Source: a virus. Taken from it: 57,714 nucleotides of DNA. The stretch is from IMG/VR virus record IMGVR_UViG_3300000295_000011, one strand, 5' to 3'. The translations under genes were made by a program, and so were the position numbers. Below, piece after piece: positions 6,333 to 57,714 of the stretch. The notes under the pieces were generated by a model. That model ran no database searches. It was not told where the DNA came from and was given only the letters and a program-made list of their open reading frames with translations. The first letter of the stretch is position 1; every line of letters begins with the position of its first letter.

Positions 6333-6706
6333 GAGCGAACACATTGCTCGCACTGGGTCGACTCAAGCCCGGGCAGATGAACAAGACCGAGACCGCGTAC
6401 CGCGACCACCTCCGCGCACTCAAGGCCGCAGGCGAAGTCCTTGACTTCCGCTTCGAAGCGATTACCCTCAAGCTCGCGCAAGACCTCCGATACACGCCCG
6501 ACTTCTTCGTGCTCAAGCCAGACGGCTCGATCGAATTCCATGAGGTCAAGGGAAGCCGCGCCATCTTCCGAGACGACGCCAAGGCGAAGTGCAAGATGTG
6601 CGCACAGCTCAACCAGTGGGCGACCCTGATCGTGGTCTACCCGCGCCGCAAGAAAGACGGCGGCGGGTGGGAGTATGAAACCTTTGAGCCGAGCAACTTA
6701 TGGTAA
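6329..6706 (+). CDS. PD-(D/E)XK nuclease, DUF1064-like (possible junction resolvase)
   Basis: YTPDFFV ... IEFHEVKG matches the D...E.K nuclease signature I recall for DUF1064. Confidence 0.6.
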   Translation: MRANTLLALGRLKPGQMNKTETAYRDHLRALKAAGEVLDFRFEAITLKLAQDLRYTPDFFVLKPDGSIEFHEVKGSRAIFRDDAKAKCKMCAQLNQWATLIVVYPRRKKDGGGWEYETFEPSNLW

Positions 6707-7134
6707 TCATCGAAAAAGAATTCTTCCGTCTGCTGCGCCTCTGGGCGAGTATGCGCCGCAAGGGCCGCATCCCTACGGTCAAGTCCCCGACGTTCGTCAT
6801 CATGCAGATGATGCGCCTCGCGCAGGGATCCCCGGACGCGGAAGAGGAGGCTAACCCCTTCGCCGAGAAGCGCCAACCGCGCATCACCCCGAGCGCCGAG
6901 GAACTTCGAGCCAATGAACAGGTCGCCGACGACCTCGATGCCGCCTTCGCGTCCTCCGAGCTCCCGATGATCGCCAAGGCCGTCATCCGCGCACGCTACG
7001 TCGAGCATCTCGAACCCGAGGACATCGAACAGCGCCTGCACCTCGGGCGCAATACCTTCCGCTTCCACCACTACGCCGCAGTTTGCGAACTAAAACGAAT
7101 CTTCGATTGCATCCGCGAGAAAAGAGTCGTATAA
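6700..7134 (+). CDS. late-gene regulator in the Q position (sigma70 region-4-like HTH C-terminus)
   Basis: Last early gene. C-terminal RARYVEHLEPEDIEQRLHLGRNTFRFHHYAAVCELKR resembles a region-4 HTH. A promoter plus terminator follows immediately. Confidence 0.45.
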   Translation: MVIIEKEFFRLLRLWASMRRKGRIPTVKSPTFVIMQMMRLAQGSPDAEEEANPFAEKRQPRITPSAEELRANEQVADDLDAAFASSELPMIAKAVIRARYVEHLEPEDIEQRLHLGRNTFRFHHYAAVCELKRIFDCIREKRVV

Positions 7135-7135
7135 T
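7107..7135 (+). promoter_or_regulatory. late promoter (pR'-like)
   Basis: TTGCAT (7107-7112), 17-nt spacer, TATAAT (7130-7135). Overlaps the stop codon of the regulator gene. Confidence 0.6.
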
Positions 7136-7224
7136 GTGTAATGAAGTATTTTTGGCCTCAGTCGGAGGCGAGTCGTGTGCGGCTTTAATCCCTGTCGGGA
7201 GACAGAGTCGTATCTAGCGAAAAT

Positions 7225-7257
7225 AAAGCTCGGATCGAAAGGTTCGAGCTTTTTTTA
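7225..7257 (+). terminator. intrinsic terminator (tR'-like) about 90-115 nt after the late promoter
   Basis: AAAGCTCGGA-TCGAAAGG-TTCGAGCTTT followed by T6. Confidence 0.75.
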
Positions 7258-7385
7258 TACCCCTTTTGCGGGTGGAGCGGTCTCGACATGACGTGATCGT
7301 TTCGCATGTTTCCGATCGCGTGACCCCTTTACCCACCACATTCTTTGCTTTCGACAGGGATTGCCGCCTCAATCACGTTGAACGC

Positions 7386-7769
7386 ATGAAAAAGATTCTC
7401 TTGGCGGCTGTTGTGGCTGCATTCTTCATCTCTACCGCCGCAGATGCTCGTGGTGGTCGCGGTTTCGGCGGACGCTCTTTCTCGCGCCCGTCTGCTGCCA
7501 GATCAGTCCCGAATCGCACGACTGTCGTGAAGAAGAACACGACCGTCATCAACCAGACGGTTAACAGCTCCGCCACGTCAAGCGGCGGCGGGTTCTGGTC
7601 TAGCGTCATGGGTTCGGCTGTCGGCTCGACGGCGGGTTCTATGGCGGGCAATGCCATTTACGACTCCATGACGAAGGACGACGAACCGAAGCAGCCGGCA
7701 CAGGCTCAGCCGCAGGTCATCTATGTGCCTGTCGACCAGAACGGGAAGCCCGTTAAACAGGCTCAGTGA
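7386..7769 (+). CDS. secreted Gly/Ser-rich protein (moron-like)
   Basis: Signal peptide MKKILLAAVVAAFFISTAADA. Bracketed by terminators at 7225-7257 and 7829-7861. Confidence 0.65.
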   Translation: MKKILLAAVVAAFFISTAADARGGRGFGGRSFSRPSAARSVPNRTTVVKKNTTVINQTVNSSATSSGGGFWSSVMGSAVGSTAGSMAGNAIYDSMTKDDEPKQPAQAQPQVIYVPVDQNGKPVKQAQ

Positions 7770-7828
7770 ACCGAAGGGGGGCATTTCAGTTATTCGAAAT
7801 TTTCGAACAGCTGACCGAACCCATGCGC

Positions 7829-7861
7829 AAACTCCCGCGTAAAAAAAACGGGAGTTTTTTA
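7829..7861 (+). terminator. intrinsic terminator
   Basis: AAACTCCCG ... CGGGAGTTT followed by a T-run. Confidence 0.7.
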
Positions 7862-7892
7862 TTCGTCCAGAACATGACTTGAGGAGGTCTGC

Positions 7893-9127
7893 ATGGACAT
7901 CGAAAACCAGACACCCGCCCGTCTCAAGGTGGAATACCGAAAGGTCGCAGACCTCATACCCTACGCCCGAAACGCTCGAACGCATAGCGATGAGCAAGTT
8001 TCTCGCATTGCGGGATCGATCCGAGAATTTGGCTGGACTAACCCAATTCTTGTTGACGGCACAAACGGCATTCTCGCGGGACATGGCCGCCTAGCGGCAG
8101 CACGAAAGCTCGGCATGAGCGAAGTCCCCGTGATCGAATTGGCGGGACTGAGCAAAACACAGAAACGCGCCTACATTCTCGCTGACAACAAGCTCGCATT
8201 GGACGCGGGCTGGGACGACGAACTGCTAAAGGTCGAACTCGAAGAGCTGAAACTGGAAGGCGTGGAACTTGACGACATAGGCTTTTCTTCGGAAGAGCTT
8301 GACGACTTATTGACCGTTGACGATTCTGACGATTCCGACGAGCCTGATATTCCTGAGCCTAAGCCAGACCCTGTATCGAAACGCGGCGACGTTTGGACGC
8401 TTGGTGTTCACCGAGTAATGTGCGGTGATTCATGCTCTGCCACAGATATTTCTAAGCTTGTGGGGGGGGTAGGGTAAACCTCTACCTGACGGACCCTCCC
8501 TACAACGTAGCCTACGAAGGCAAGACGAAAGACGCTCTTACGATTGAAAACGATTCGATGGAGGATGGGGCCTTTAGGCAGTTCCTCGTTGATGCGTTTT
8601 CAATGGCGGACACCGTCCTTGAGCCGGGCGGCGTTTTCTACATCTGGCACGCCGACTCGGAGGGATACAACTTCCGTGGCGCTTGCCGAGACGTTGGCTG
8701 GAAGGTGCGCGAGTGCCTGATCTGGAACAAGAACGCCTTTGTTCTTGGTCGCCAAGACTACCAGTGGAAGCATGAGCCGTGCCTTTACGGATGGAAAGAC
8801 GGCGCGAGTCATGAGTGGTACTCAGACAGAAGCCAGACGACGGTTATCGACTGTGATCGCCCGATGAGAAACGGCGAGCATCCGACGATGAAGCCTGTGG
8901 AGCTTTTCCGTTATTTGATGGAAAACTCAACGAAGAAAGGCGACAGCGTTTTGGACAGCTTTGGCGGCTCGGGGACAACTCTTGTCGCAGCAGAACAGAC
9001 CGGGCGCATTGCGTACCTGATGGAACTTGATCCCGTTTACGTTGATGTCATCATCAAACGTTGGCAGGAAATGACGGGGCTTGAAGCCGTTCGAGATGAC
9101 GGCAAAACCTACAACTCGCTGATTTGA
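7893..9127 (+). pseudogene. ParB-N-domain / N6-N4 DNA methyltransferase fusion, interrupted by a frameshift at a G8 tract
   Basis: ORF 7893..8477 carries the ParB motif ILAGHGRLAAA. The frame open from 8456 to 9127 reads GGRVNLYLTDPPYNVAYEGK ... FGGSGTT. The two frames overlap only at 8456-8477, which contains the G8 tract (8462-8469). One extra G restores a single ORF of about 411 aa. Confidence 0.8.
8462..8469 (+). repeat. poly-G (G8) homopolymer at the methyltransferase frameshift point
   Basis: tGGGGGGGGt read directly from the sequence. Confidence 0.95.
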
Positions 9128-9164
9128 AAACTCTCGGAGGGGTGACCCAGTAACCGAGAGTTTT
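9127..9164. terminator. hairpin terminator after the methyltransferase
   Basis: AAAACTCTCGG, 16-nt loop, CCGAGAGTTTT. 11-bp stem flanked by A- and T-runs. Confidence 0.6.
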
Positions 9165-9236
9165 ACAACCATGTTTGAAGGATTGTCTTAACTCGGCGAA
9201 CATCGGAACTGCCCCGTACCTTCCGAGAGTATTCAT

Positions 9237-9653
9237 ATGGCTAGAACAAAAATTCCAATCGACTTGAGAAAGGTTGAGGAATACGCTCAAGTCTGCGACA
9301 GCGAGGAGGAAATCGCTTTTGCTCTTGGGATTTCCCAAGACACCCTGACTCGCCGAAAACAGGAATATGCGGATTTTGCGGAAGCGATAAAAAGAGGCAA
9401 GGCCAAGGCTAACGTTTTCGTCGGCGGCAAGCTCATGGAAAAGATTCGAGGGGGCGACACGGCCTCCATCATCTTTTACATGAAAGCCCGTTGCGGCTGG
9501 AAGGAAACCTCGCGCAACGAATTGTCGGGCGCGAACGGCGGCGCAATCAAGGTTGACGCCACGCCCGACCTCTCCGGCGTTGATTTGGACAAACTTAAGG
9601 CGGTAAAGGAAATGCTTTATGGCAACTCGACTGCCGACACTGATCGAACTTGA
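9237..9653 (+). CDS. terS: terminase small subunit
   Basis: 138 aa with an N-terminal HTH-like segment (EEIAFALGISQDTLTRRK). Directly upstream of and overlapping TerL. Confidence 0.7.
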   Translation: MARTKIPIDLRKVEEYAQVCDSEEEIAFALGISQDTLTRRKQEYADFAEAIKRGKAKANVFVGGKLMEKIRGGDTASIIFYMKARCGWKETSRNELSGANGGAIKVDATPDLSGVDLDKLKAVKEMLYGNSTADTDRT

Positions 9654-29013: not shown

Positions 29014-29649
29014 ATGGCGGACACACAGACATGGTTCAACTTCGCATCCGTTGAGGACGTGCGGGGCATCCCCGATGTCGCCTCCACGCAGTCAGAAGCT
29101 ATCCAGACGCAGTACGCCTTCAGTGCGGACTTTCAGAATCTGGGAAGCCTGATGCAGGATGTGATCGACGCCACGCACGACCTCGAGCGCCTGCACGCGG
29201 CGGCGATGGATCCCCAGACCGCCTACGGCGTTTACCTCGACTGGTGGGGGCAGAAAGTCGGCGTAGACCGCTTCATCAAGGTGCGCGGCGAGTACGTGCG
29301 CTTTGATGATGACTACTTTCGCTTCCTGATCCTCTACCGCGCCGCTTGCAACATCTCGAACGGCTCGGCGGACGCCGCGAACAAGCTGCTACAGCGCCTG
29401 ACGGACACCACGGTTTTCGTCGTGGACTATCTCGACATGAGCGTGAACAGCATCGTCATCATCGGGAACATTTCCGACCTGCAGGCAATGATTTTGCAGA
29501 CCTACGGCCTATTGAATCGACCAGCGGGCGTTCTGACCAATCTTCTCGTCATCTATCCCGACGAGCAGATTTTCGGCTTTGAGGGGTCGACCCTCATGCC
29601 TTTCGACGTCGGCGTTTTCAATCCCGGCAGAACAATTGAGATTGATTGA
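29014..29649 (+). CDS. baseplate/fibre-attachment protein (DUF2612 / gpI-like)
   Basis: 211 aa, between the J-like gene and the first fibre gene. Confidence 0.5.
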   Translation: MADTQTWFNFASVEDVRGIPDVASTQSEAIQTQYAFSADFQNLGSLMQDVIDATHDLERLHAAAMDPQTAYGVYLDWWGQKVGVDRFIKVRGEYVRFDDDYFRFLILYRAACNISNGSADAANKLLQRLTDTTVFVVDYLDMSVNSIVIIGNISDLQAMILQTYGLLNRPAGVLTNLLVIYPDEQIFGFEGSTLMPFDVGVFNPGRTIEID

Positions 29650-30707
29650 TGAGCAACTATCCCGAACACCTGTTGACCTCGGCACTGGCCGCCGAGGGCG
29701 ACAAAACGATTCCGCCCGCAACCTCGCAGGAGGCGGGCACTGGCCGCTTTTCGCAGAACAAGGGGTGGACGGAAGTCAACTCCATGCCGCTCGCAGAGGG
29801 CGGCATCCCGCCGAAGCGTCAAGACTTCAACGGTGCGTTCTACCTGCTATCCCAGCTTCTGCTTTGGTATCAGCAGGGCGGCGTGATGAACTATTCCGTC
29901 GACCTCGACTATGAGGTCGGTAATGAGGTCATGCTCAACGGAACTAAGTATCGCTGTCTTCGCGAGAATGGCCCGGGCACGTCGCTTGTCACGCCTGGGT
30001 CGAGCAAGGCCGTTTGGAAAAATTTGGACGCACCAAGCGTTATAGCAGGTCAGATCACGCCTTTTGCGAATTGCCGTCTTGGTGGCAGCGACGGACGTCG
30101 CTTGATTCCGTGGGGCGAGACAGCGGCCGACGAGCGATATGTGTTGTGTGACGGTGGCTCCGACGGCCTCGGAGGTACTGTTCCAGACTTGATTGGGAAG
30201 TTTATTCTCCCGAGCACCGTAGGCGAGTCTGGACAGGTTGGTGGCAAGCTGACCGCAGGGACGGATGACAAAAAGATTGCGGGGACGGTTGGCGAAACGA
30301 TTCTGACCGTTGACCAGATCCCCAGTCACTCGCACACCGGCAAGGCTGCGGCGGTGTCCGGGCATACGCACTCGCGCGGCACGATGAACATCACGGGCTC
30401 CTTCCCCGTCGATGATCACAAGCAGCGTTATGTGACCGGCAGCTTCTACGCAGGCGAATGGGACTGTTGGGATAGCGACAACCGAGACTCTGAAAACACG
30501 TCGGTGCGGTGTCAGTTCGACGCCGCGCGCACTTGGACGGGGCGCACGTCTACGGATGGCGCTCACTCACACGACGTCACCCTCGAGTCCGTCGGCGGCA
30601 ATCAGGGACACACGCACACGCTTGACGGCGCGTCACATTCGCACACGGTCAAACTTCCGCTGCCGCCGTTCTTCAAACTGGCTTTCTTTGTAAAGCTACC
30701 TGAATAA
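29646..30707 (+). CDS. tail fibre protein with collar-like segment and HxH repeats
   Basis: Segment LCDGGSDGLGGTVPDLIGKFILPS. Repeats HSHTG, GHTHS, AHSHD, GHTHT, SHSHT. Contains MNITGSFP, which resembles the cassette entry motif. Confidence 0.7.
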   Translation: MMSNYPEHLLTSALAAEGDKTIPPATSQEAGTGRFSQNKGWTEVNSMPLAEGGIPPKRQDFNGAFYLLSQLLLWYQQGGVMNYSVDLDYEVGNEVMLNGTKYRCLRENGPGTSLVTPGSSKAVWKNLDAPSVIAGQITPFANCRLGGSDGRRLIPWGETAADERYVLCDGGSDGLGGTVPDLIGKFILPSTVGESGQVGGKLTAGTDDKKIAGTVGETILTVDQIPSHSHTGKAAAVSGHTHSRGTMNITGSFPVDDHKQRYVTGSFYAGEWDCWDSDNRDSENTSVRCQFDAARTWTGRTSTDGAHSHDVTLESVGGNQGHTHTLDGASHSHTVKLPLPPFFKLAFFVKLPE

Positions 30708-32138: not shown

Positions 32139-32978
32139 ATGGCTACTCAGTTTCTCGACCTCGCTGGCTTGACCTACTATGACGGCAAGCTGAAGGAAAA
32201 GGCCGCTGGCTCCATCAAAATCGAAGGTCTGAACGTCTCGCTTACGTCGATCTCTGGTGCGGTACTCGGCACGATCGCGATCCCGCAGCAAGAAATCGAA
32301 CTCGCCTCTGGTTCGAAGAATGGCCTTATGAGCAAGGAACACTTCACCAAGCTCGAAGGTATCGCCGCCGGTGCAACGCTGGTCGAAGAAAGCGAAACTA
32401 ACGGCAATGTCAAGATCAATGGCAAGGAAACGACGGTTTACACGCCTGAGGTCTACACCCCTCACGAAAATGGCCTCTACAAGGTGACGGTCACCGACAA
32501 GGGTGCTGTGAGCGTCGCCACGCCGGTCACGAAGAGTGACATCACCGGTCTCGGCATTCCGGCTCAGGACACGACCTATGCGCCTGCATCTGGCGAAAAG
32601 GATGGCCTGATGTCGGCTGCTCACTTCACCAAGCTTGAAGGCGTTGAAGCCAAGGCTCAGGTGAACGTGATCGAGAAGGTGTCTGTCAACGGCTCTGCGC
32701 TCCCGATCAACAGCAAGGGTGTGAACATTGACCTCACGCCGTATGCCCTCAGGACCGACATCACGAATGTCTACAAGTTCAAGGGCTCTGTCGAGAACTT
32801 CGAGGCTCTGCCGAAGGACGACGTGACGGCTGGTGACGTGTATGACGTTAAGGCCGCTCATGGCGACAATCCCGCCGGCACGAACTTTGCCTGGACGGGC
32901 ACGGAATGGGATCCGCTCGGCGGTGCTTTCCACGTCGACGCTATCGCTACCAGCGCTATCGACGCTCTCTTCGCTTAA
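32139..32978 (+). CDS. tail fibre protein (GLMS..HFTKLEG repeat type)
   Basis: Repeat NGLMSKEHFTKLEGI / DGLMSAAHFTKLEGV. The N-terminus MATQFLDLAGLTYY is shared with the next fibre gene. Confidence 0.7.
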   Translation: MATQFLDLAGLTYYDGKLKEKAAGSIKIEGLNVSLTSISGAVLGTIAIPQQEIELASGSKNGLMSKEHFTKLEGIAAGATLVEESETNGNVKINGKETTVYTPEVYTPHENGLYKVTVTDKGAVSVATPVTKSDITGLGIPAQDTTYAPASGEKDGLMSAAHFTKLEGVEAKAQVNVIEKVSVNGSALPINSKGVNIDLTPYALRTDITNVYKFKGSVENFEALPKDDVTAGDVYDVKAAHGDNPAGTNFAWTGTEWDPLGGAFHVDAIATSAIDALFA

Positions 32979-33001: not shown

Positions 33002-33616
33002 ATGGCCGGTTTTCTTGATCTAACCGGCCTCTCGCGCTTCAAATCGAAGTTGCTTGAGGCCATTGCAAACGTTTATGTCACCAAGACAGCACATTCGAAG
33101 GCGCTTAACCTCAAGGTCAACAAGGCCGACCTTGAATCTGAAATCAAGCGAGTCCTTGGAACTCTAGACACGGGCATCCCGGTTGGCGCGATCATGGCCT
33201 TCCACGATGTGCCTGCGGGATGGCTTCAGTGCAACGGGGCGGCGGTGAGTCGAACGACTTACGCCGCTCTTTTTGCAAAGATCGGCACAAAGTACGGCTC
33301 GGGTAACGGCTCGACGACGTTCAACCTCCCGAACCTTCACCATAAGTTCATCGAGGGCACGACCACTTCTTCAGAGGTTGGTAAGTCTGTGTCGGCTGGG
33401 TTACCGAACATCAGCGGACGACTCGGCGCATACGACTGTGACGACTCCAAATTCTCAGGGCCATTTCAATATGTAGGCCATGAAGGCGGCGTCTCAACTG
33501 CATGGAGGAGCGTTCCGTACGCGAATTTTGACGCCTCGCGTGCATCGTCAAAATACGGCTCTTCGTCAACCGTCCAACCAGAGTCCATCCGCCTGATCCC
33601 TTGTATCAAATCTTGA
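33002..33616 (+). CDS. tail-collar-domain fibre / receptor-binding protein with exchangeable C-terminal tip (cassette A expressed)
   Basis: Collar-type segment PVGAIMAFHDVPAGWLQCNGAAVSRTTYAALFAKIGTKYGSGNGSTTFNLPNL. Crossover site CCGAACATCAGCGG at 33404-33417. Confidence 0.85.
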   Translation: MAGFLDLTGLSRFKSKLLEAIANVYVTKTAHSKALNLKVNKADLESEIKRVLGTLDTGIPVGAIMAFHDVPAGWLQCNGAAVSRTTYAALFAKIGTKYGSGNGSTTFNLPNLHHKFIEGTTTSSEVGKSVSAGLPNISGRLGAYDCDDSKFSGPFQYVGHEGGVSTAWRSVPYANFDASRASSKYGSSSTVQPESIRLIPCIKS

Positions 33617-33821
33617 TGCAAAGGATGAGCCTCAGTGCCGAAGGCTGTACCGTTGATGCAGAACCGTAGGTGCTGTCAGACTTGGCCGCAGAAAAGGAAA
33701 ACTTTCGGAATTGAATCTGGCCCGGGTTAAAGTATGCCTTGCTGCCCGTGGACGAGGAAAAGGCACCGGTGCCCTCCTCGCCGTGGTCACCACCACCAGG
33801 CAAAGCGCCCGTTATGTTCGG
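33606..33821 (-). other. silent fibre-tip cassette B (71 aa)
   Basis: PNITGALPGGGDHGEEGTGAF...STVQPSALRLILCIKI*. Stop-free, with no plausible independent start. Confidence 0.8.
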
Positions 33822-33826
33822 ACGCA

Positions 33827-34048
33827 CCGAACATCACAGGTGAATTCCCAAACAATGACAACGAATATGAAAAGTATTATTCAGGCGCATTTTCTATCGG
33901 ATCTGTAAGGCTTTCTGGCTATTCAGACGGAAATGGCTCTACCGGGCAGACTGGATTGTTCCGGGCTTCCAGGTCATCATCAACTTACGGATCCAGTACG
34001 ACTGTCCAACCCTCATCTGTTCGCTCGCTTTTCTGCATTAAATCTTGA
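33827..34048 (+). other. silent fibre-tip cassette C (73 aa)
   Basis: PNITGEFPNNDNEYEKYYSGAF...TTVQPSSVRSLFCIKS*. Confidence 0.8.
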
Positions 34049-34241
34049 TGCAGAAAAACGACCGGACGGCGGCAGGCTGCACGGTCGAAGAGCTGCTGTA
34101 AATCGCGCTTGAGCGAGATGCCGAAAAGTCAGCCGTGTTGCTCCCCCAGAGCTGCCCCTCTGAACAATTCCCGTCGCCGGTCTTTTTGAAGGCACCGGTT
34201 CCTGACAGCCATGACGCAGCGAGGGTTCCACTGATGTTCGG
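34038..34241 (-). other. silent fibre-tip cassette D (67 aa)
   Basis: Hand-translated: PNISGTLAASWLSGTGAFKKTGDGNCSEGQLWGSNTADFSASRSSAIYSSSSTVQPAAVRSFFCIKI*. It has no start codon, so it is absent from the ORF track. Confidence 0.75.
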
Positions 34242-34246
34242 TGCGT

Positions 34247-34456
34247 CCGAACATAACAGGTAGCTTCTTTGGACGATACGGCGGCTATTACAGCGGAGCG
34301 TTCACAGCCAACAGCTCATATAAAAGCGATGCGTGGGCCGGGACGGATCCAAACCCAACCTCAGATTTCCGAGCGTCTCGAAGCTCGTCTGTGTACGGAG
34401 CGGCGTCGACCGTCCAGCCGGCTTCAACCCGTATGCTCTTGTGCATCAAGACTTGA
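34247..34456 (+). other. silent fibre-tip cassette E (69 aa)
   Basis: PNITGSFFGRYGGYYSGAF...STVQPASTRMLLCIKT*. Confidence 0.8.
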
Positions 34457-34661
34457 TGCACAGGATAAGCCTGAGAGAAGCAGGCTGTACTGTTTGCGTC
34501 GCACCATACGTGCTATCTGAGTCTGATGCGTCGAAATAGAACAAGTGTCCGCCGTTGTTATCTTTGTTTGGGCAGTCTACAATTTTGCCAACTCGAAAGG
34601 CACCATTTTGTGTGCCGACGGGAACGTAAGCAGACGCCACAAATTCTCCTGTGATGTTCGG
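34446..34661 (-). other. silent fibre-tip cassette F (71 aa)
   Basis: PNITGEFVASAYVPVGTQNGAF...QTVQPASLRLILCIKS*. Confidence 0.8.
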
Positions 34662-34666
34662 TGCGT

Positions 34667-34870
34667 CCGAACATAACGGGTGCAGTCACTGCGTCATGGG
34701 TAAGAGGCACTGGAGCCTTCAAAGATGCCGAAAATGGTAATTGCCCAGGCGGAAACCTCAATGGGCCCGCCAAAATAGACTTTTCGGCATCTCGCTCAAG
34801 CGACTTGTATGGCTCGTCTTCAACTGTGCAGCCCGCTTCAATTCGTCTCGTTCACTGTGTTAAGTTTTAA
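34667..34870 (+). other. silent fibre-tip cassette G (67 aa)
   Basis: PNITGAVTASWVRGTGAFKDAENGNC...STVQPASIRLVHCVKF*. Related to cassette D. Confidence 0.8.
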
Positions 34871-35108
34871 TGCAATGAACGAGACGGACAGACGAGGGTT
34901 GGACGGTCGACGTGCCATATGTGCTACTGGAACGTGAGGCATCAAAGCGCAGACAACCGCCTTTGTCATTATTGATGATACTGTAATAAGACACAGCCGA
35001 TGCAGCGGTTGTTCTTGTCTTGCTGTAAATCGCTCCAGAGACATATTTATTTACTGCGGTGACATCAGCGGCACGCAAGGTGTCATAACCGACACCTGTG
35101 ATGTTCGG
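34860..35108 (-). other. silent fibre-tip cassette H (82 aa)
   Basis: PNITGVGYDTLRAADVTAVNKYV...STVQPSSVRLVHCIKT*. Confidence 0.8.
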
Positions 35109-35113
35109 ACCGT

Positions 35114-35329
35114 CCGAACATCACAGGACAAGTCAACCTATGTGGGGCTTGGGGTGGCGTCTCGAACGCCGGCGCTCTATCGACGCGCGGTTCTACCGGA
35201 GCGCCGACTGGCGGAGCACAGAACGGCGTAAATGTCTACTTTGATGCTTCGGCTTCAAGAAGCACATATGGATCGTCCAGTACAGTGCAGCCGTCATCTA
35301 TCAGAGGACTCTTCTGCATCAAGATTTGA
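35114..35329 (+). other. silent fibre-tip cassette I (71 aa)
   Basis: Hand-translated: PNITGQVNLCGAWGGVSNAGALSTRGSTGAPTGGAQNGVNVYFDASASRSTYGSSSTVQPSSIRGLFCIKI*. Not in the ORF track. Confidence 0.75.
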
Positions 35330-35549
35330 TGCAGTGAACGAGGCGAAGCGATGTCGGTTGAACAGTCGATGATGCGCCGTACTTCGCGTCGGAATTTGAT
35401 GCCGCAAGGGCAATGTCTGTAATGACGGATGAGCCAACGTTCGTCTTGCCGTTCCACGGCGTGGAGGACTTCCCACCAGAAAGTGCTCCACTGGCGGTGA
35501 AGTCATCGCAAGCTACGTTAAACGGCTTGATAGCGCCTGTTATGTTCGG
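35319..35549 (-). other. silent fibre-tip cassette J (76 aa); the only cassette with an in-frame upstream ATG (35564)
   Basis: (MQIRV)PNITGAIKPFNVACDDF...STVQPTSLRLVHCIKS*. Confidence 0.8.
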
Positions 35550-35641
35550 GACTCGGATTTGCATGTCATAGAGCGCTCTCTATGTCGTGCCGGGCACATG
35601 AGCGGGCTTCATCTGCAACTCGACGAAGCCCGCGCTGTTGG

Positions 35642-36781
35642 CTACTTCCAGTCGATCATGCCGGCACATTCGGCACACGCTCGAACGTGCTCACTCCAGC
35701 GCTCCATAACCGCCCTCCTGGCGTCGAAAAAGTCGGAGCGCTGATAGGCTCTGCTTACCTGCGTACCGACATCGTGGCTGAGACACATCTCCGCAACGTC
35801 GAAAGGGACAGCTTCGTCCGCAAGCCACGATCTTGCTATCGATCGCAGGCCGTGTGCAACGAGTCGTCCCTTGAGCGATGTACTGTGCAGGTGCTTCGCC
35901 AAGGCCTGCGAGCTAACGGGCTTGCCGGTGCTCTTGCCGGCAAAGACATGACCGCTTCGTGGCCTCGGGCTGAGCGTCTGCTCTCTGGCGATCAGCTCCT
36001 TCATGAAAGACGTGAGGGGCACGCGAAATGGCCGTCGCTTCTTCATGTGCTCAGCTGGTATGTGGATCGCGTCTTCTGTGATCCACGACTTCTCGAGCGA
36101 AGCATTCTCGCCTGGTCGAAGCATCGAGCAGAGCGAGAAGAGGAAGAGCACGCGCATGCGCTCCGGCGCTTCTTTCATAACCGCCATAACGGTGGGCAAC
36201 TCTCGCCAGTCGACAGACGGCATCGGCTTGACCTGCGGCGGTGCGAAGACCTTCGATACTCGTGCGAGAGGGTTGTGCTCGATGTAGCCGGCACAAACGG
36301 CGAGGTCAAGGATCTCGCGAAGGCGCATGAGTACGCGCTTGAGCGTCGCCTGCTTGCCGTCCTTTTCTATCGGCTGCACGGTTCGGATCACGAGCGGAGC
36401 CGTGATCTCGTCGAGCTGACGATTTCCGAGCGGTTCGATGATGTACCGCTCCAGGCGTCGGCGCTCGTCCTGATAGCTCACGATCTGGGGCTTTTTGAGG
36501 CGGCACCAAAGACGAAAAGCGTCTTTCAGTACATACCCTTTTGGCGGCTCGAGCCCGATGTCCTTTCTTAGGCGTCGGGCTTTTTGTCGTGCCTGCATCA
36601 GGCTCATGTCGGGATGTTCGCCGAGACGCTTGTCTGCGACACGGCCTGAGCACGACGTGCGAAAGTACCAGATTTTTCTGCCGGACGGCATGACTCGCAA
36701 CGTCAGGCCGTTCCCGTCGGCTACCGAATATCTCTTGTCCCGCGGCTTCATTGCCGCAATTTTTTTAGAGGAGAGCGTCAT
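35642..36781 (-). CDS. tyrosine recombinase (P4-integrase-like), candidate shufflon invertase
   Basis: 379 aa. N-terminal arm-binding-type domain (YSVADGNGLTLRVMPSGRKIWYFR). Catalytic signature LRPGE ... HGLRS ... AYQRSD. 78 nt from the end of ORF J (92 nt from site 35536-35549). Paralogous to int at 45402. Confidence 0.85.
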   Translation of the reverse strand: MTLSSKKIAAMKPRDKRYSVADGNGLTLRVMPSGRKIWYFRTSCSGRVADKRLGEHPDMSLMQARQKARRLRKDIGLEPPKGYVLKDAFRLWCRLKKPQIVSYQDERRRLERYIIEPLGNRQLDEITAPLVIRTVQPIEKDGKQATLKRVLMRLREILDLAVCAGYIEHNPLARVSKVFAPPQVKPMPSVDWRELPTVMAVMKEAPERMRVLFLFSLCSMLRPGENASLEKSWITEDAIHIPAEHMKKRRPFRVPLTSFMKELIAREQTLSPRPRSGHVFAGKSTGKPVSSQALAKHLHSTSLKGRLVAHGLRSIARSWLADEAVPFDVAEMCLSHDVGTQVSRAYQRSDFFDARRAVMERWSEHVRACAECAGMIDWK

Positions 36782-37363
36782 ATGACCTCAGACTTCAAAA
36801 AAGCATTTTGTTATGACGATGCTGGGTACTACCAGCACGAGGTTTCTGTCCAGGTTGTGGACGGAGAGCCTCTCATGCCGCCGTCGGTCACCTTTTCCTG
36901 TCCATGGGGAAAGGCGACGCAAGACGACACCGTCTTCTACCGCTTCGACGGGAAAAAGTGGATTGCTGAGAAGAAGCCGACGTGCGCAGCCGAGTGTGTC
37001 GGACTCGTGATCTCTCATACGACGACCACGCCGCATGACGAGGAAATGCGCGAATTGATCCGCAAGTTCTCTCAGGAAGAGGGCTATTGCGAAAAGCGCG
37101 GCGAGGACCTCTCGTGGTCCCTCGAGAAGATCCCTGAAAAGACTGAGGAAGAAAAACTGACTGAGGCGAGGCAGTCCGTTCGCTCGAAGCGCGATTCCCT
37201 GATCTCTGACACGGACTACCTGCTCTGCGCCGACTACCCGATCAGCGCCGAAGACCTCAAGGCCGTCAAGGCCTACCGTCAGGCGCTTCGCGATGTTCCG
37301 CAACAGGAGGGCTTCCCCTTCGAGGTGGTCTGGCCTGAACTGCCGACCATCCTCGCGGAATAA
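36782..37363 (+). CDS. tail fibre assembly protein (Tfa/gpG-like chaperone)
   Basis: C-terminal RDSLISDTDYLLCADYPISAEDLKAVKAYRQALRDVPQQEGFPFEVVWPELP is the typical Tfa signature. Confidence 0.75.
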   Translation: MTSDFKKAFCYDDAGYYQHEVSVQVVDGEPLMPPSVTFSCPWGKATQDDTVFYRFDGKKWIAEKKPTCAAECVGLVISHTTTTPHDEEMRELIRKFSQEEGYCEKRGEDLSWSLEKIPEKTEEEKLTEARQSVRSKRDSLISDTDYLLCADYPISAEDLKAVKAYRQALRDVPQQEGFPFEVVWPELPTILAE

Positions 37364-45401: not shown

Positions 45402-46589
45402 ATGCAAGTCACCGCCAGAAACATCGGGAGCCTCCCAGTGGGGACTCACCGAGCAGAACGTTGCCTATATTTAAGAAAGCGAGAGGGTCACGCGCCGACG
45501 TGGGTCTTCCGCTACACGGTCTCGGGAAAGCAGAAGGACGTGGTGATCGGGACGGCGGACGCCGTGACGATTGCTCAGGCAAAGGAAACCGCCGCACGCT
45601 TTCGCACGATGATTGCCGACGGGGTCGACCCGCTTGCCGCGAAGCAGGAGCGGCGGGAGAGGATGAAGAACGCGGGCGCGGAGGTTGACCGCCCGTTCAC
45701 CTTCGCCGACCTCGTTGCCGAGGCCCTGCCCGTCATCGTGCAGAGCAAGGCGTGGCGAAATCAGAAACACGCTGCACAATGGCAATCGACCCTCGAGCAG
45801 TACGCCCTCCCTGTACTGGGTAAGCTGTCGGTCGAGGACGTGAGCCGAGACGACATCCTTGAAGTACTCGTGCCGATTTGGAGAACGAAGCCGGAGACTG
45901 CTGGCAGATTGCGCGGCAGGCTTGAGGCCGTCTTCGCCTACGCCATAGTCATAGGAAAGCGAAGCGGAGGGAATCCCGCCCTGTGGCGCGGGAACCTTGA
46001 GATGTTCCTGCCGCCGATTGCCAAGGTGAAAAAGGAAAGTCACCACGAGGCGCTCACGTTCGACCAGGCTCGCGCGCTTTTCGATGAGTGGCGACCGCCC
46101 ACGTCGATCACGGCCTGCGCGATTCTGTTTGGGGCGCTGACCGCGTCCCGCGTCGGGGAATTCGTGCCCGCGAAGTGGGAGGAGATCGACCTGCACAGGG
46201 AGGTCTGGCACTGCCCGCCCGAGCGACGAAAGGACGGGAAGAAATACCCGCACCGCGTCCCGCTGTGCCGGCAGCTCGTTTCCATGCTGAAGATGCTCCC
46301 GCACGATTCCCCGTATGTGTTCGCCGGCAAAGGCGGCTCGCACATCTCGAAGGAGACGCCCCGCGTGGTTCTCCAGAAGAAGCTCGGGCACGGGACAATG
46401 CACGGCTTTCGCTCGACATTCCGTGACTGGTGCGCGGAGAACGGGAAGGACCCGATTGTTGCCGAGAAAAGCCTGATGCACGCTACTGGGAGTGCCGTGG
46501 TTCAGGCGTATCAACGCTCCGACCTCCTAGACGCTCGCAGGGTTCTGATGCAGGAATGGGCGGACGCCGTGTACCCGGAGCAGGTTTGA
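45402..46589 (+). CDS. int: integrase, P4-type tyrosine recombinase
   Basis: N-terminal arm-binding-type domain. Catalytic signature SRVGE ... HGFRSTFRDW ... AYQRSD. Adjacent to the repeat-rich attP and to xis. Confidence 0.9.
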   Translation: MQVTARNIGSLPVGTHRAERCLYLRKREGHAPTWVFRYTVSGKQKDVVIGTADAVTIAQAKETAARFRTMIADGVDPLAAKQERRERMKNAGAEVDRPFTFADLVAEALPVIVQSKAWRNQKHAAQWQSTLEQYALPVLGKLSVEDVSRDDILEVLVPIWRTKPETAGRLRGRLEAVFAYAIVIGKRSGGNPALWRGNLEMFLPPIAKVKKESHHEALTFDQARALFDEWRPPTSITACAILFGALTASRVGEFVPAKWEEIDLHREVWHCPPERRKDGKKYPHRVPLCRQLVSMLKMLPHDSPYVFAGKGGSHISKETPRVVLQKKLGHGTMHGFRSTFRDWCAENGKDPIVAEKSLMHATGSAVVQAYQRSDLLDARRVLMQEWADAVYPEQV

Positions 46590-57660: not shown

Positions 57661-57714
57661 GCGTGGAACTAGGATGTACATCCCACGGTGCCTGTACATT
57701 CCCTACCAACGTAG
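57661..57714. repeat. terminal direct repeat copy 2, identical to 1-54
   Basis: See copy 1. Confidence 0.9.

Follow-up and report, generated by a model that had tools for sequence, protein, structure and literature searches.

A probable tail-fibre shufflon with ten interchangeable tips in a temperate phage of the human gut

Why would a phage keep, immediately behind a tail-fibre gene, nine further coding segments that share the beginning and the end of the fibre's own tip, alternate in strand and in two cases have no start codon at all? The question is raised by the IMG/VR record IMGVR_UViG_3300000295_000011, a metagenomic assembly of 57,714 nt (the window, by which we mean the whole stretch of DNA analysed), in which such an array extends from a small collar-domain fibre gene to the gene of a P4-type tyrosine recombinase. 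A preliminary description of the window had proposed a shufflon at this place. We conclude that the locus is probably a shufflon, that is, a multiple-inversion system, for the receptor-binding tip of this fibre. Sequence evidence of four kinds carries this reading: the anatomy of the array, the position of the exchange point, the natural occurrence of the predicted fusions and permutations in public assemblies, and the conserved linkage of the recombinase gene to the cassettes.

Ten copies of one site and nine silent cassettes

An exact pattern count of the 14-mer CCGAACATMASNGG returned exactly 10 matches in the 57.7-kb window, all within 33404-35549; shuffling gave an expectation of 0.01, and no shuffle reached 10. 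As the preliminary description had stated, there are five copies per strand, and one of the ten lies at codon 135 of the collar-domain fibre gene. The plus-strand sites start at 33404, 33827, 34247, 34667 and 35114, the minus-strand sites at 33808, 34228, 34648, 35095 and 35536, and together they delimit five segments. Translation from every site yields ten in-frame, stop-free cassettes of 67-82 amino acids (aa), one expressed and nine silent, all of which begin with PNI[S/T]G and finish with STVQPxSxRxxxC[IV]Kx and a stop codon, so that the silent cassettes with a common ending described earlier are real. The fibre gene, its parts and the cassettes are as follows (P numbers denote fusion proteins, and L numbers related loci, in public assemblies).

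33002-33616 (+): fibre gene, 204 aa; Pfam Collar, E 2.9e-21; PHROG matches to tail-fibre and tail-collar families
33002-33403 (+): constant part of the fibre, residues 1-134 (helical N-terminal region and Collar); 93-100% identical in public proteins with different tips
33404-33417 (+): crossover site 1 in the expressed gene, codons 135-139, PNISG; flank homology to relatives stops at 33411-33418
33404-33616 (+): cassette A, the expressed tip; the exact 204-aa protein is recorded only here and on one contig of run ERR3986697
33606-33821 (-): cassette B, silent; site 33808-33821; exact fusion P0135; expressed in L089, with A inverted
33827-34048 (+): cassette C, silent; site 33827-33840; fusions of 92-96% identity (P0011, P0012; L086, L113)
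34038-34241 (-): cassette D, silent, without a start codon; site 34228-34241; exact fusion P0028; L001 aligns from 34242 back to 33999
34247-34456 (+): cassette E, silent; site 34247-34260; exact fusion P0163, in L050
34446-34661 (-): cassette F, silent; site 34648-34661; exact fusion P0177, on 17 contigs
34667-34870 (+): cassette G, silent; site 34667-34680; fusions of only 76-86% identity (P0073; L096, L099); a silent copy in L003 is 100% identical
34860-35108 (-): cassette H, silent; site 35095-35108; fusions of 98-99% identity (P0054; L106)
35114-35329 (+): cassette I, silent, without a start codon; site 35114-35127; fusion of 98% identity in L111
35319-35549 (-): cassette J, silent, terminal; site 35536-35549; fusion of 99% identity (P0018)

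The head-to-head and tail-to-tail layout proposed earlier was recovered in full. Each head-to-head junction is a 33-nt palindrome in which two 14-mers flank a 5-nt spacer (in order ACGCA, TGCGT, TGCGT and ACCGT, the first being the reverse complement of the second and third). At the tail-to-tail junctions the stop regions overlap by 11 nt, in the palindrome TGCATCAAnnnTTGATGCA, at 33606-33616, 34038-34048, 34446-34456, 34860-34870 and 35319-35329.

Cassettes D and I contain no in-frame ATG, GTG or TTG and are missing from the list of open reading frames, as had been noted. The further statement that no cassette except J has a plausible start holds in part. No ribosome-binding site was found, whereas the ATG preceding cassette J (35564) is not conserved, several related loci having an in-frame TAG there, and two codons ahead of B, E and G the spacer creates an in-frame GTG, which lacks a Shine-Dalgarno sequence. 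Promoter-like sites and terminators for the silent cassettes did not rise above chance.

PDB sequence searches with the fibre gave matches limited to the collar region of T4 gp12-type fibres, and also matched a short-fibre entry of phiTE in which the matching part is modelled, not solved. An AlphaFold2 monomer of the fibre, built from a 47-sequence alignment, was unusable (mean pLDDT 44.8).

Predicted fusions and inversions in public assemblies

If the array inverts at its sites, other tips should be found joined in frame to residues 1-134, as the preliminary description had predicted. A fibre-protein search returned 6628 relatives, and N-termini and tips were compared in the best 120. In most of these 120, the first 134 residues are 93-100% identical to those of the window protein, and widely differing tips follow from PNI[S/T]G onwards. 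Four of the predicted fusions, those with B, D, E and F, are matched exactly, residue for residue, in public assemblies; tip identity is 92-99% in the fusions with C, H, I and J and 76-86% in those with G, and all ten tip families occur joined to the constant part somewhere in public data. Cassettes C, E and I would need two inversions for expression because they are oriented like the fibre gene in the window, and all three were found expressed in other assemblies, in keeping with the two-step access proposed for plus-oriented cassettes. Every alternative fusion that we looked up comes from a different sample.

The rearrangements can also be followed in the DNA. Over the 2.6-7.4 kb upstream of the array, L001, L003, L044 and L050 share 99.0-99.4% identity with the window; their collinearity with it breaks at 33411-33418, in site 1, and restarts exactly at another copy of the site, namely at inverted D in L001, at inverted E/F and then inverted G/H in L003, at inverted F in L044 and at direct E/F in L050. 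The simplest predicted event is found in L089, where B is expressed and A lies inverted behind it, and in L048 segment S6 is inverted. Two loci that are 99.76% identical over 7.9 kb differ in segment order (S1 S6 S5 S2 S3 in L046, S1-S6 in L044), a difference that corresponds to a signed permutation for which four inversions suffice. Inversion of segments at the repeats, singly and in groups, is thus seen between near-identical phages of different samples. Two OGKK01 contigs are the two sides of one break and not coexisting arrangements.

The search of related genomes for the site array that had been suggested earlier was run, and it found arrays of like design, assembled independently and by different assemblers, in dozens of samples. 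Array size in the related contigs ranges from 2 to 12 sites, at least 40 tip families are spread over about 100 loci, and identical cassette pairs sit inside otherwise different arrays.

The point of exchange was located by comparing 124 distinct site contexts, of which 119 have CCG as the Pro codon, against a background use of CCG of 46%, and 120 have AAC as the Asn codon, while the third positions of the following two codons are scrambled; the constraint therefore acts on the DNA, and not on the protein alone. Furthermore, positions 9-12 of the 14-mer travel with the cassette family, whether this is expressed, internal or terminal, and the six bases upstream follow the context and not the cassette. 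Thus, the exchange falls within the invariant 8 bp CCGAACAT. The overlap region of a tyrosine recombinase needs such an invariant stretch common to the partner sites. Beyond the core, the Ile codon of the site is ATA in 27 of the 124 contexts, a codon that accounts for <2% of Ile codons in the structural genes of this phage, and this excess likewise points to an influence at the DNA level on position 9.

The arrangement of fibre, cassettes, recombinase and chaperone recurs in L119 (GCA_958434365.1, 6089-7451), a prophage of Sutterella wadsworthensis whose baseplate is Mu-like. Its recombinase is 68% identical to that of the window, and all seven of its sites have the core CCGAATAT. The core is thus uniform within a locus and differs between enzyme lineages (CCGAACAT versus CCGAATAT). 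In one cassette of this prophage the start lies 25 codons further upstream, at an additional, degenerate site (CCGAATATGGGCGG), and the added stretch resembles the window linker PNLHHKFIEGTTTSSEVGKSVSAGL.

On the proposed mechanism, the fibre gene would consist of a fixed 5' part (codons 1-134) and whichever cassette lies downstream of site 1, with nine further cassettes held in reserve and the array organised as five tail-to-tail pairs. The recombinase would pair two inverted sites and exchange strands within the 8-bp core, which encodes Pro-Asn-Ile; the DNA between the paired sites would then invert, bringing a new tip in frame and reordering the silent segments. Five segments would allow as many as 3840 arrangements of the DNA (5! 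x 2^5) and 10 isoforms of the protein. A lone chaperone outside the invertible region presumably recognises the C-terminal motif common to all tips.

Two observations concern exchange away from the 14-mer. Tail-to-tail partners vary among phages (across related loci L001-L118, C is paired with D or G, F with E, I, f9 or f12, and J with four partners), which indicates that exchange also occurs at the conserved overlapping 3' ends with their TGCATCAAnnnTTGATGCA palindrome. In the case of F, homology reaches about 55 nt into the partner's conserved 3' end, which points to homologous recombination rather than to a second specific site.

An IMG/VR contig (L007) carries a 12-site array (sites 6403-9096) with inward-facing fibre genes on both flanks. 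One is of the 134-aa-constant type, the other, of a 172-aa type (8897-9415, -), differs in its N-terminus and is accompanied by baseplate genes of its own. The locus gave no match to the recombinase or the chaperone. It is either a chimeric assembly joined through shared cassettes or a case of two phage lineages on one cassette pool.

The adjoining recombinase and the alternatives

Which enzyme would drive the inversions? Three further features lie beyond the last cassette.

35550-35641 (no strand): conserved 92-nt spacer that separates the recombinase stop codon from the last site; hairpin 35602-35633 (12 bp); palindromes 35587-35597 and 35570-35579
35642-36781 (-): P4-type tyrosine recombinase, the proposed invertase; PF13356, PF22022, PF00589; catalytic residues invariant; syntenic
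36782-37363 (+): tail-fibre assembly chaperone, outside the invertible region; Pfam Phage_tail_APC, E 8.6e-23; PHROG tail fiber assembly; syntenic

The recombinase had been called P4-integrase-like, and both its domain order and its arm domain agree with this. Pfam places Arm-DNA-bind_3 (E 1.9e-16), Phage_int_M (1.1e-15) and Phage_integrase (1.8e-13) in succession, and the N-terminus matches the arm domain of a CP4-like integrase (3JTZ, E 1.7e-11). R222, K247, H310, R313, H336 and Y346 are invariant in 22 recombinase sequences, and this R-K-H-R-H-Y set, together with the domain order, is that of the P4/CP4-57 type. The NCBIfam PRK09692 score is 182.7 bits, below the cut-off of 434.

The gene does adjoin the array, as had been reported; it is its 3' end, however, and not its start, that faces the cassettes, 92 nt from the last site. 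Its place is within the tail-fibre module; the window encodes another integrase at 45402-46589. In all 16 fibre-anchored loci that reach that far, the recombinase gene separates the last cassette from the chaperone gene, with an enzyme 59-98% identical to that of the window, and this synteny persists with fibre N-termini of different length. In the recombinase-anchored loci, the site is 96 nt past the gene end in 20 of 20. Because this linkage is conserved, we infer that the neighbouring recombinase is the probable catalyst of the inversions.

The spacer at 35550-35641 could be a 3' element of the recombinase mRNA or an accessory or arm-type binding region; one stem pair of its hairpin is seen as C-G, U-G and U-A among the loci.

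Several observations weigh against a shufflon driven by this enzyme. The evidence for rearrangement comes throughout from comparisons between samples, and the switching rate could for this reason be low. Near a core, 30 of 53 locus ends lie <=60 nt from it, a count that is confounded: the clustering of contig ends is weak evidence because the 33-42-nt junction repeats alone can break assemblies made with k=31-55. The palindromes of the internal junctions are symmetric, in contrast to the sfx sites, whose asymmetry is thought to hold Rci, the recombinase of the R64 shufflon, to inversion; given this symmetry and the range of 2 to 12 sites, deletions may occur too, or assemblies may have collapsed. 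The spread in site number could accordingly reflect deletion between direct copies, gain and loss of cassettes, or collapsed assemblies. The usual job of P4-type integrases is to integrate and excise. No arm-type sites were identified for the recombinase, TGTGCCNGGCAC, examined in the window as a repeated arm-type site, not being enriched there. Finally, two related loci, identical in their arrays, have a recombinase gene that was called in two pieces of 241 aa and 134 aa (L044, 10571-11296; L045, 10170-11296), which may represent a frameshifted, inactive copy beside a frozen array.

A possible but rather doubtful extension is that a P4-family integrase with its arm domain has turned into a dedicated multi-site invertase that also excises and captures cassette pairs in an integron-like manner, with a pool of at least 40 tip families shared among Sutterellaceae phages. 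The arrays of 2-12 sites, the identical pairs in different arrays and the symmetry of the internal sites, which should permit deletion, are consistent with such a course.

It is unlikely, in our judgement, that the array is real and changes only over evolutionary time, through occasional illegitimate or homologous exchange among relatives, while being effectively fixed within any population. The restriction of all rearrangements to comparisons between samples fits such a history, and so do the apparent split of the recombinase gene in two related contigs and the changes of tail-to-tail partner, which require exchange away from the 14-mer, probably by homologous recombination in the conserved 3' ends. 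However, phages that are 99.8% identical over 7.9 kb are already several inversions apart, and the breakpoints are confined to the 8-bp core, which is too short for RecA-type exchange at site 1. Moreover, the core is invariant even at synonymous positions, and an intact recombinase remains linked to the array across a divergence spanning 59-98% identity. On the preferred reading, that of a shufflon, switching would be frequent enough to yield mixed populations.

It is very unlikely that the inversions are real and the P4-type neighbour is an ordinary integrase, with catalysis left to the second integrase of the window, a Xer-type enzyme of the host or a host invertase. The phage already owns a separate integrase, as does the S. 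wadsworthensis prophage, in which the second one is found at the contig end, and the distance from the recombinase gene to the terminal site is fixed. The position of the gene is kept despite different fibre N-termini and a different baseplate, and the core differs with the recombinase lineage (CCGAACAT versus CCGAATAT). These observations outweigh the P4/CP4-57 integrase architecture of the neighbour and the integrase annotation of its nearest named phage and plasmid relatives (24-34% identity). That the cassettes are separate small genes, or their arrangement an artefact of metagenome assembly, is extremely improbable: in-frame GTG or ATG codons do stand just upstream of some cassettes, and the assembly is metagenomic with internal repeats of 33-42 nt, but D and I have no start codon, the ATG of J is TAG in related loci, a Shine-Dalgarno sequence and a promoter signal were looked for and none found, and full-length fusions occur in many independent assemblies, with like arrays in dozens of samples.

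The phage, its host and related inversion systems

The window ends in a 54-nt exact terminal direct repeat (1-54 = 57661-57714) and is therefore taken as a circularly closed assembly of about 57.7 kb whose coordinates are an arbitrary permutation; its G+C content is 58%. It encodes a terminase, a DUF3383 protein and a cI-like repressor, and in close relatives baseplate genes (spike, sheath initiator, Baseplate_J, wedge) lie just upstream of the fibre. The integrase at 45402-46589 is likewise P4-type, with the same domain type, and 26-30% identical to the array-side recombinase. No tRNA genes were detected in the window, and a tblastn search of it with an approximate Hin sequence as query gave nothing better than E 8.4 for a Hin-like serine invertase. 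For some samples a source is named, and all of those are human-gut metagenomes. The phage is a circular, temperate, myovirus-type phage from the human gut.

Among phage GenBank records no close relative was found, the matches being only to the collar domain, over about 120 nt, and a scan of a genome collection with the constant part of the fibre gave two distant Burkholderiales matches only. The host is probably Sutterella, an assignment that rests on the annotated recombinase homologue of S. wadsworthensis, 68% identical, and not on the scan.

Downstream of the array, the start codons of the recombinase (-) and the chaperone (+) abut back to back in CATATG at 36779-36784, with zero intergenic DNA, so that late transcription to the chaperone must cross the entire recombinase gene antisense. 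Upstream of the shufflon fibre lie two other fibre-like genes (29646-30707 and 32139-32978). One of the two bears HxH repeats (SHSHT, GHTHS, AHSHD, GHTHT, SHSHT), which are of a type known from metal-binding fibre tips. The N-terminus of the other contains the motif FLDLxGL, as does that of the shufflon fibre, and this hints at one attachment site for both.

In its layout the locus resembles the R64 (IncI) shufflon: a constant 5' gene part is combined with alternative 3' cassettes that lie tail-to-tail in invertible segments, short repeats of alternating orientation separate the segments, the crossover sites are in coding sequence, segments invert singly or in groups, and a tyrosine recombinase gene directly adjoins the array. 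The two differ in their target, which is the PilV pilus adhesin in R64 and a Collar-domain phage tail fibre here, and in the number of tips, 7 there versus 10 here. They also differ in the enzyme, since Rci is without an arm-binding domain and matches PF00589 only (PMC8138268), whereas the window enzyme has PF13356 (Arm-DNA-bind_3), and in the sites, which are asymmetric sfx in R64 (PMC11852207) and symmetric 33-nt palindromes at the internal positions here. Homology of the parts was considered and rejected. The tips and the fibre show none to PilV (fibre profile versus PilV, hhalign probability 0.09), Pfam finds in the fibre no Shufflon_N domain, Collar standing instead, and the recombinase reaches a best BLASTP E of 0.12 against Rci.

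The preliminary description had named serine invertases as the enzymes of the phage fibre-switching systems. This holds for Mu, P1 and p15B but is incomplete, since Rin is a tyrosine recombinase (PMC6109161, PMC8778435). Serine invertases are at work in Mu, P1 and p15B and also in the three-tip, Gin-type fibre shufflon of FR-phi (PMC6109161, PMC13418256). As is proposed for the present locus, the systems of Min (p15B), Gin, Cin and Pin (Mu, P1, e14) swap fibre C-termini by programmed inversion and change the host range, Min with several crossover sites. In those systems, however, a Hin/Gin-family enzyme stands beside the invertible DNA in place of a tyrosine recombinase, and in Mu and P1 the chaperone inverts along with the tip, whereas here one chaperone lies outside the array.

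The Rin shufflon, a tyrosine-recombinase-driven shufflon of phage receptor-binding proteins, was described in 2018 and in Eggerthella prophages in 2022, and inversions were observed between prophage and virion genomes (PMC6109161, PMC8778435). Rin of Bifidobacterium and Eggerthella prophages is likewise phage-encoded, varies the C-terminus of a receptor-binding protein and is a tyrosine-family invertase that adjoins cassettes with short repeats. By description, the enzymes are set apart, Rin being XerD-like without an arm domain (PMC6109161) and the present one P4-type with an arm. The sites and tip numbers differ as well, the 11-bp rix TTCCCTAACCC with five tips versus CCGAACAT(MASNGG) with ten, as do the phages, Actinobacteria siphoviruses versus a contractile-tail baseplate with a probable betaproteobacterial host.

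According to a preprint, a BV01-like Phocaeicola phage, also temperate and from the gut, has a multi-cassette array between fibre gene and recombinase, and its reads contained all configurations; that array is described there with three cassettes, six isoforms, the 10-bp motif TGGGAGAACT and a Bacteroidota host (PMC13596623). A literature search found no description of the recombinase and fibre shufflon family reported here, a result that does not prove its absence from the literature.

To conclude, the mechanism is already known and the locus is not a new kind of system, because tyrosine-recombinase tail-fibre shufflons have been published (Rin, 2018). What distinguishes it is a P4-type recombinase with an arm domain, a very compact site in coding sequence and an unusually large, widely shared cassette repertoire. 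With 10 tips here and 12 in relatives, it would rank among the largest reported tip repertoires operated by phage inversion; Rin has 5 tips, the BV01-like phage 6 and R64 7. With thousands of homologous fibre proteins recorded, the system is common in human-gut metagenomes. The shufflon accounts for the tendency of assemblies of these phages to break at the fibre gene, although the 33-42-nt repeats alone could do so too.

The compact site of 8-14 bp and the candidate enzyme may be of use for synthetic shuffling, and host-range engineering could draw on the cassettes as a natural library of interchangeable receptor-binding tips, each of them small (about 70 aa); in the phage itself, the tips would determine the host range. 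On the evidence of its domains, the P4 type with an arm-binding domain appears to be a third tyrosine recombinase lineage recruited for programmed inversion, which raises the question of how such an enzyme is steered to inversion. If excision and capture of cassette pairs do take place, several lineages of gut Sutterellaceae phages that differ in fibre N-terminus and baseplate would draw on one pool of tips.

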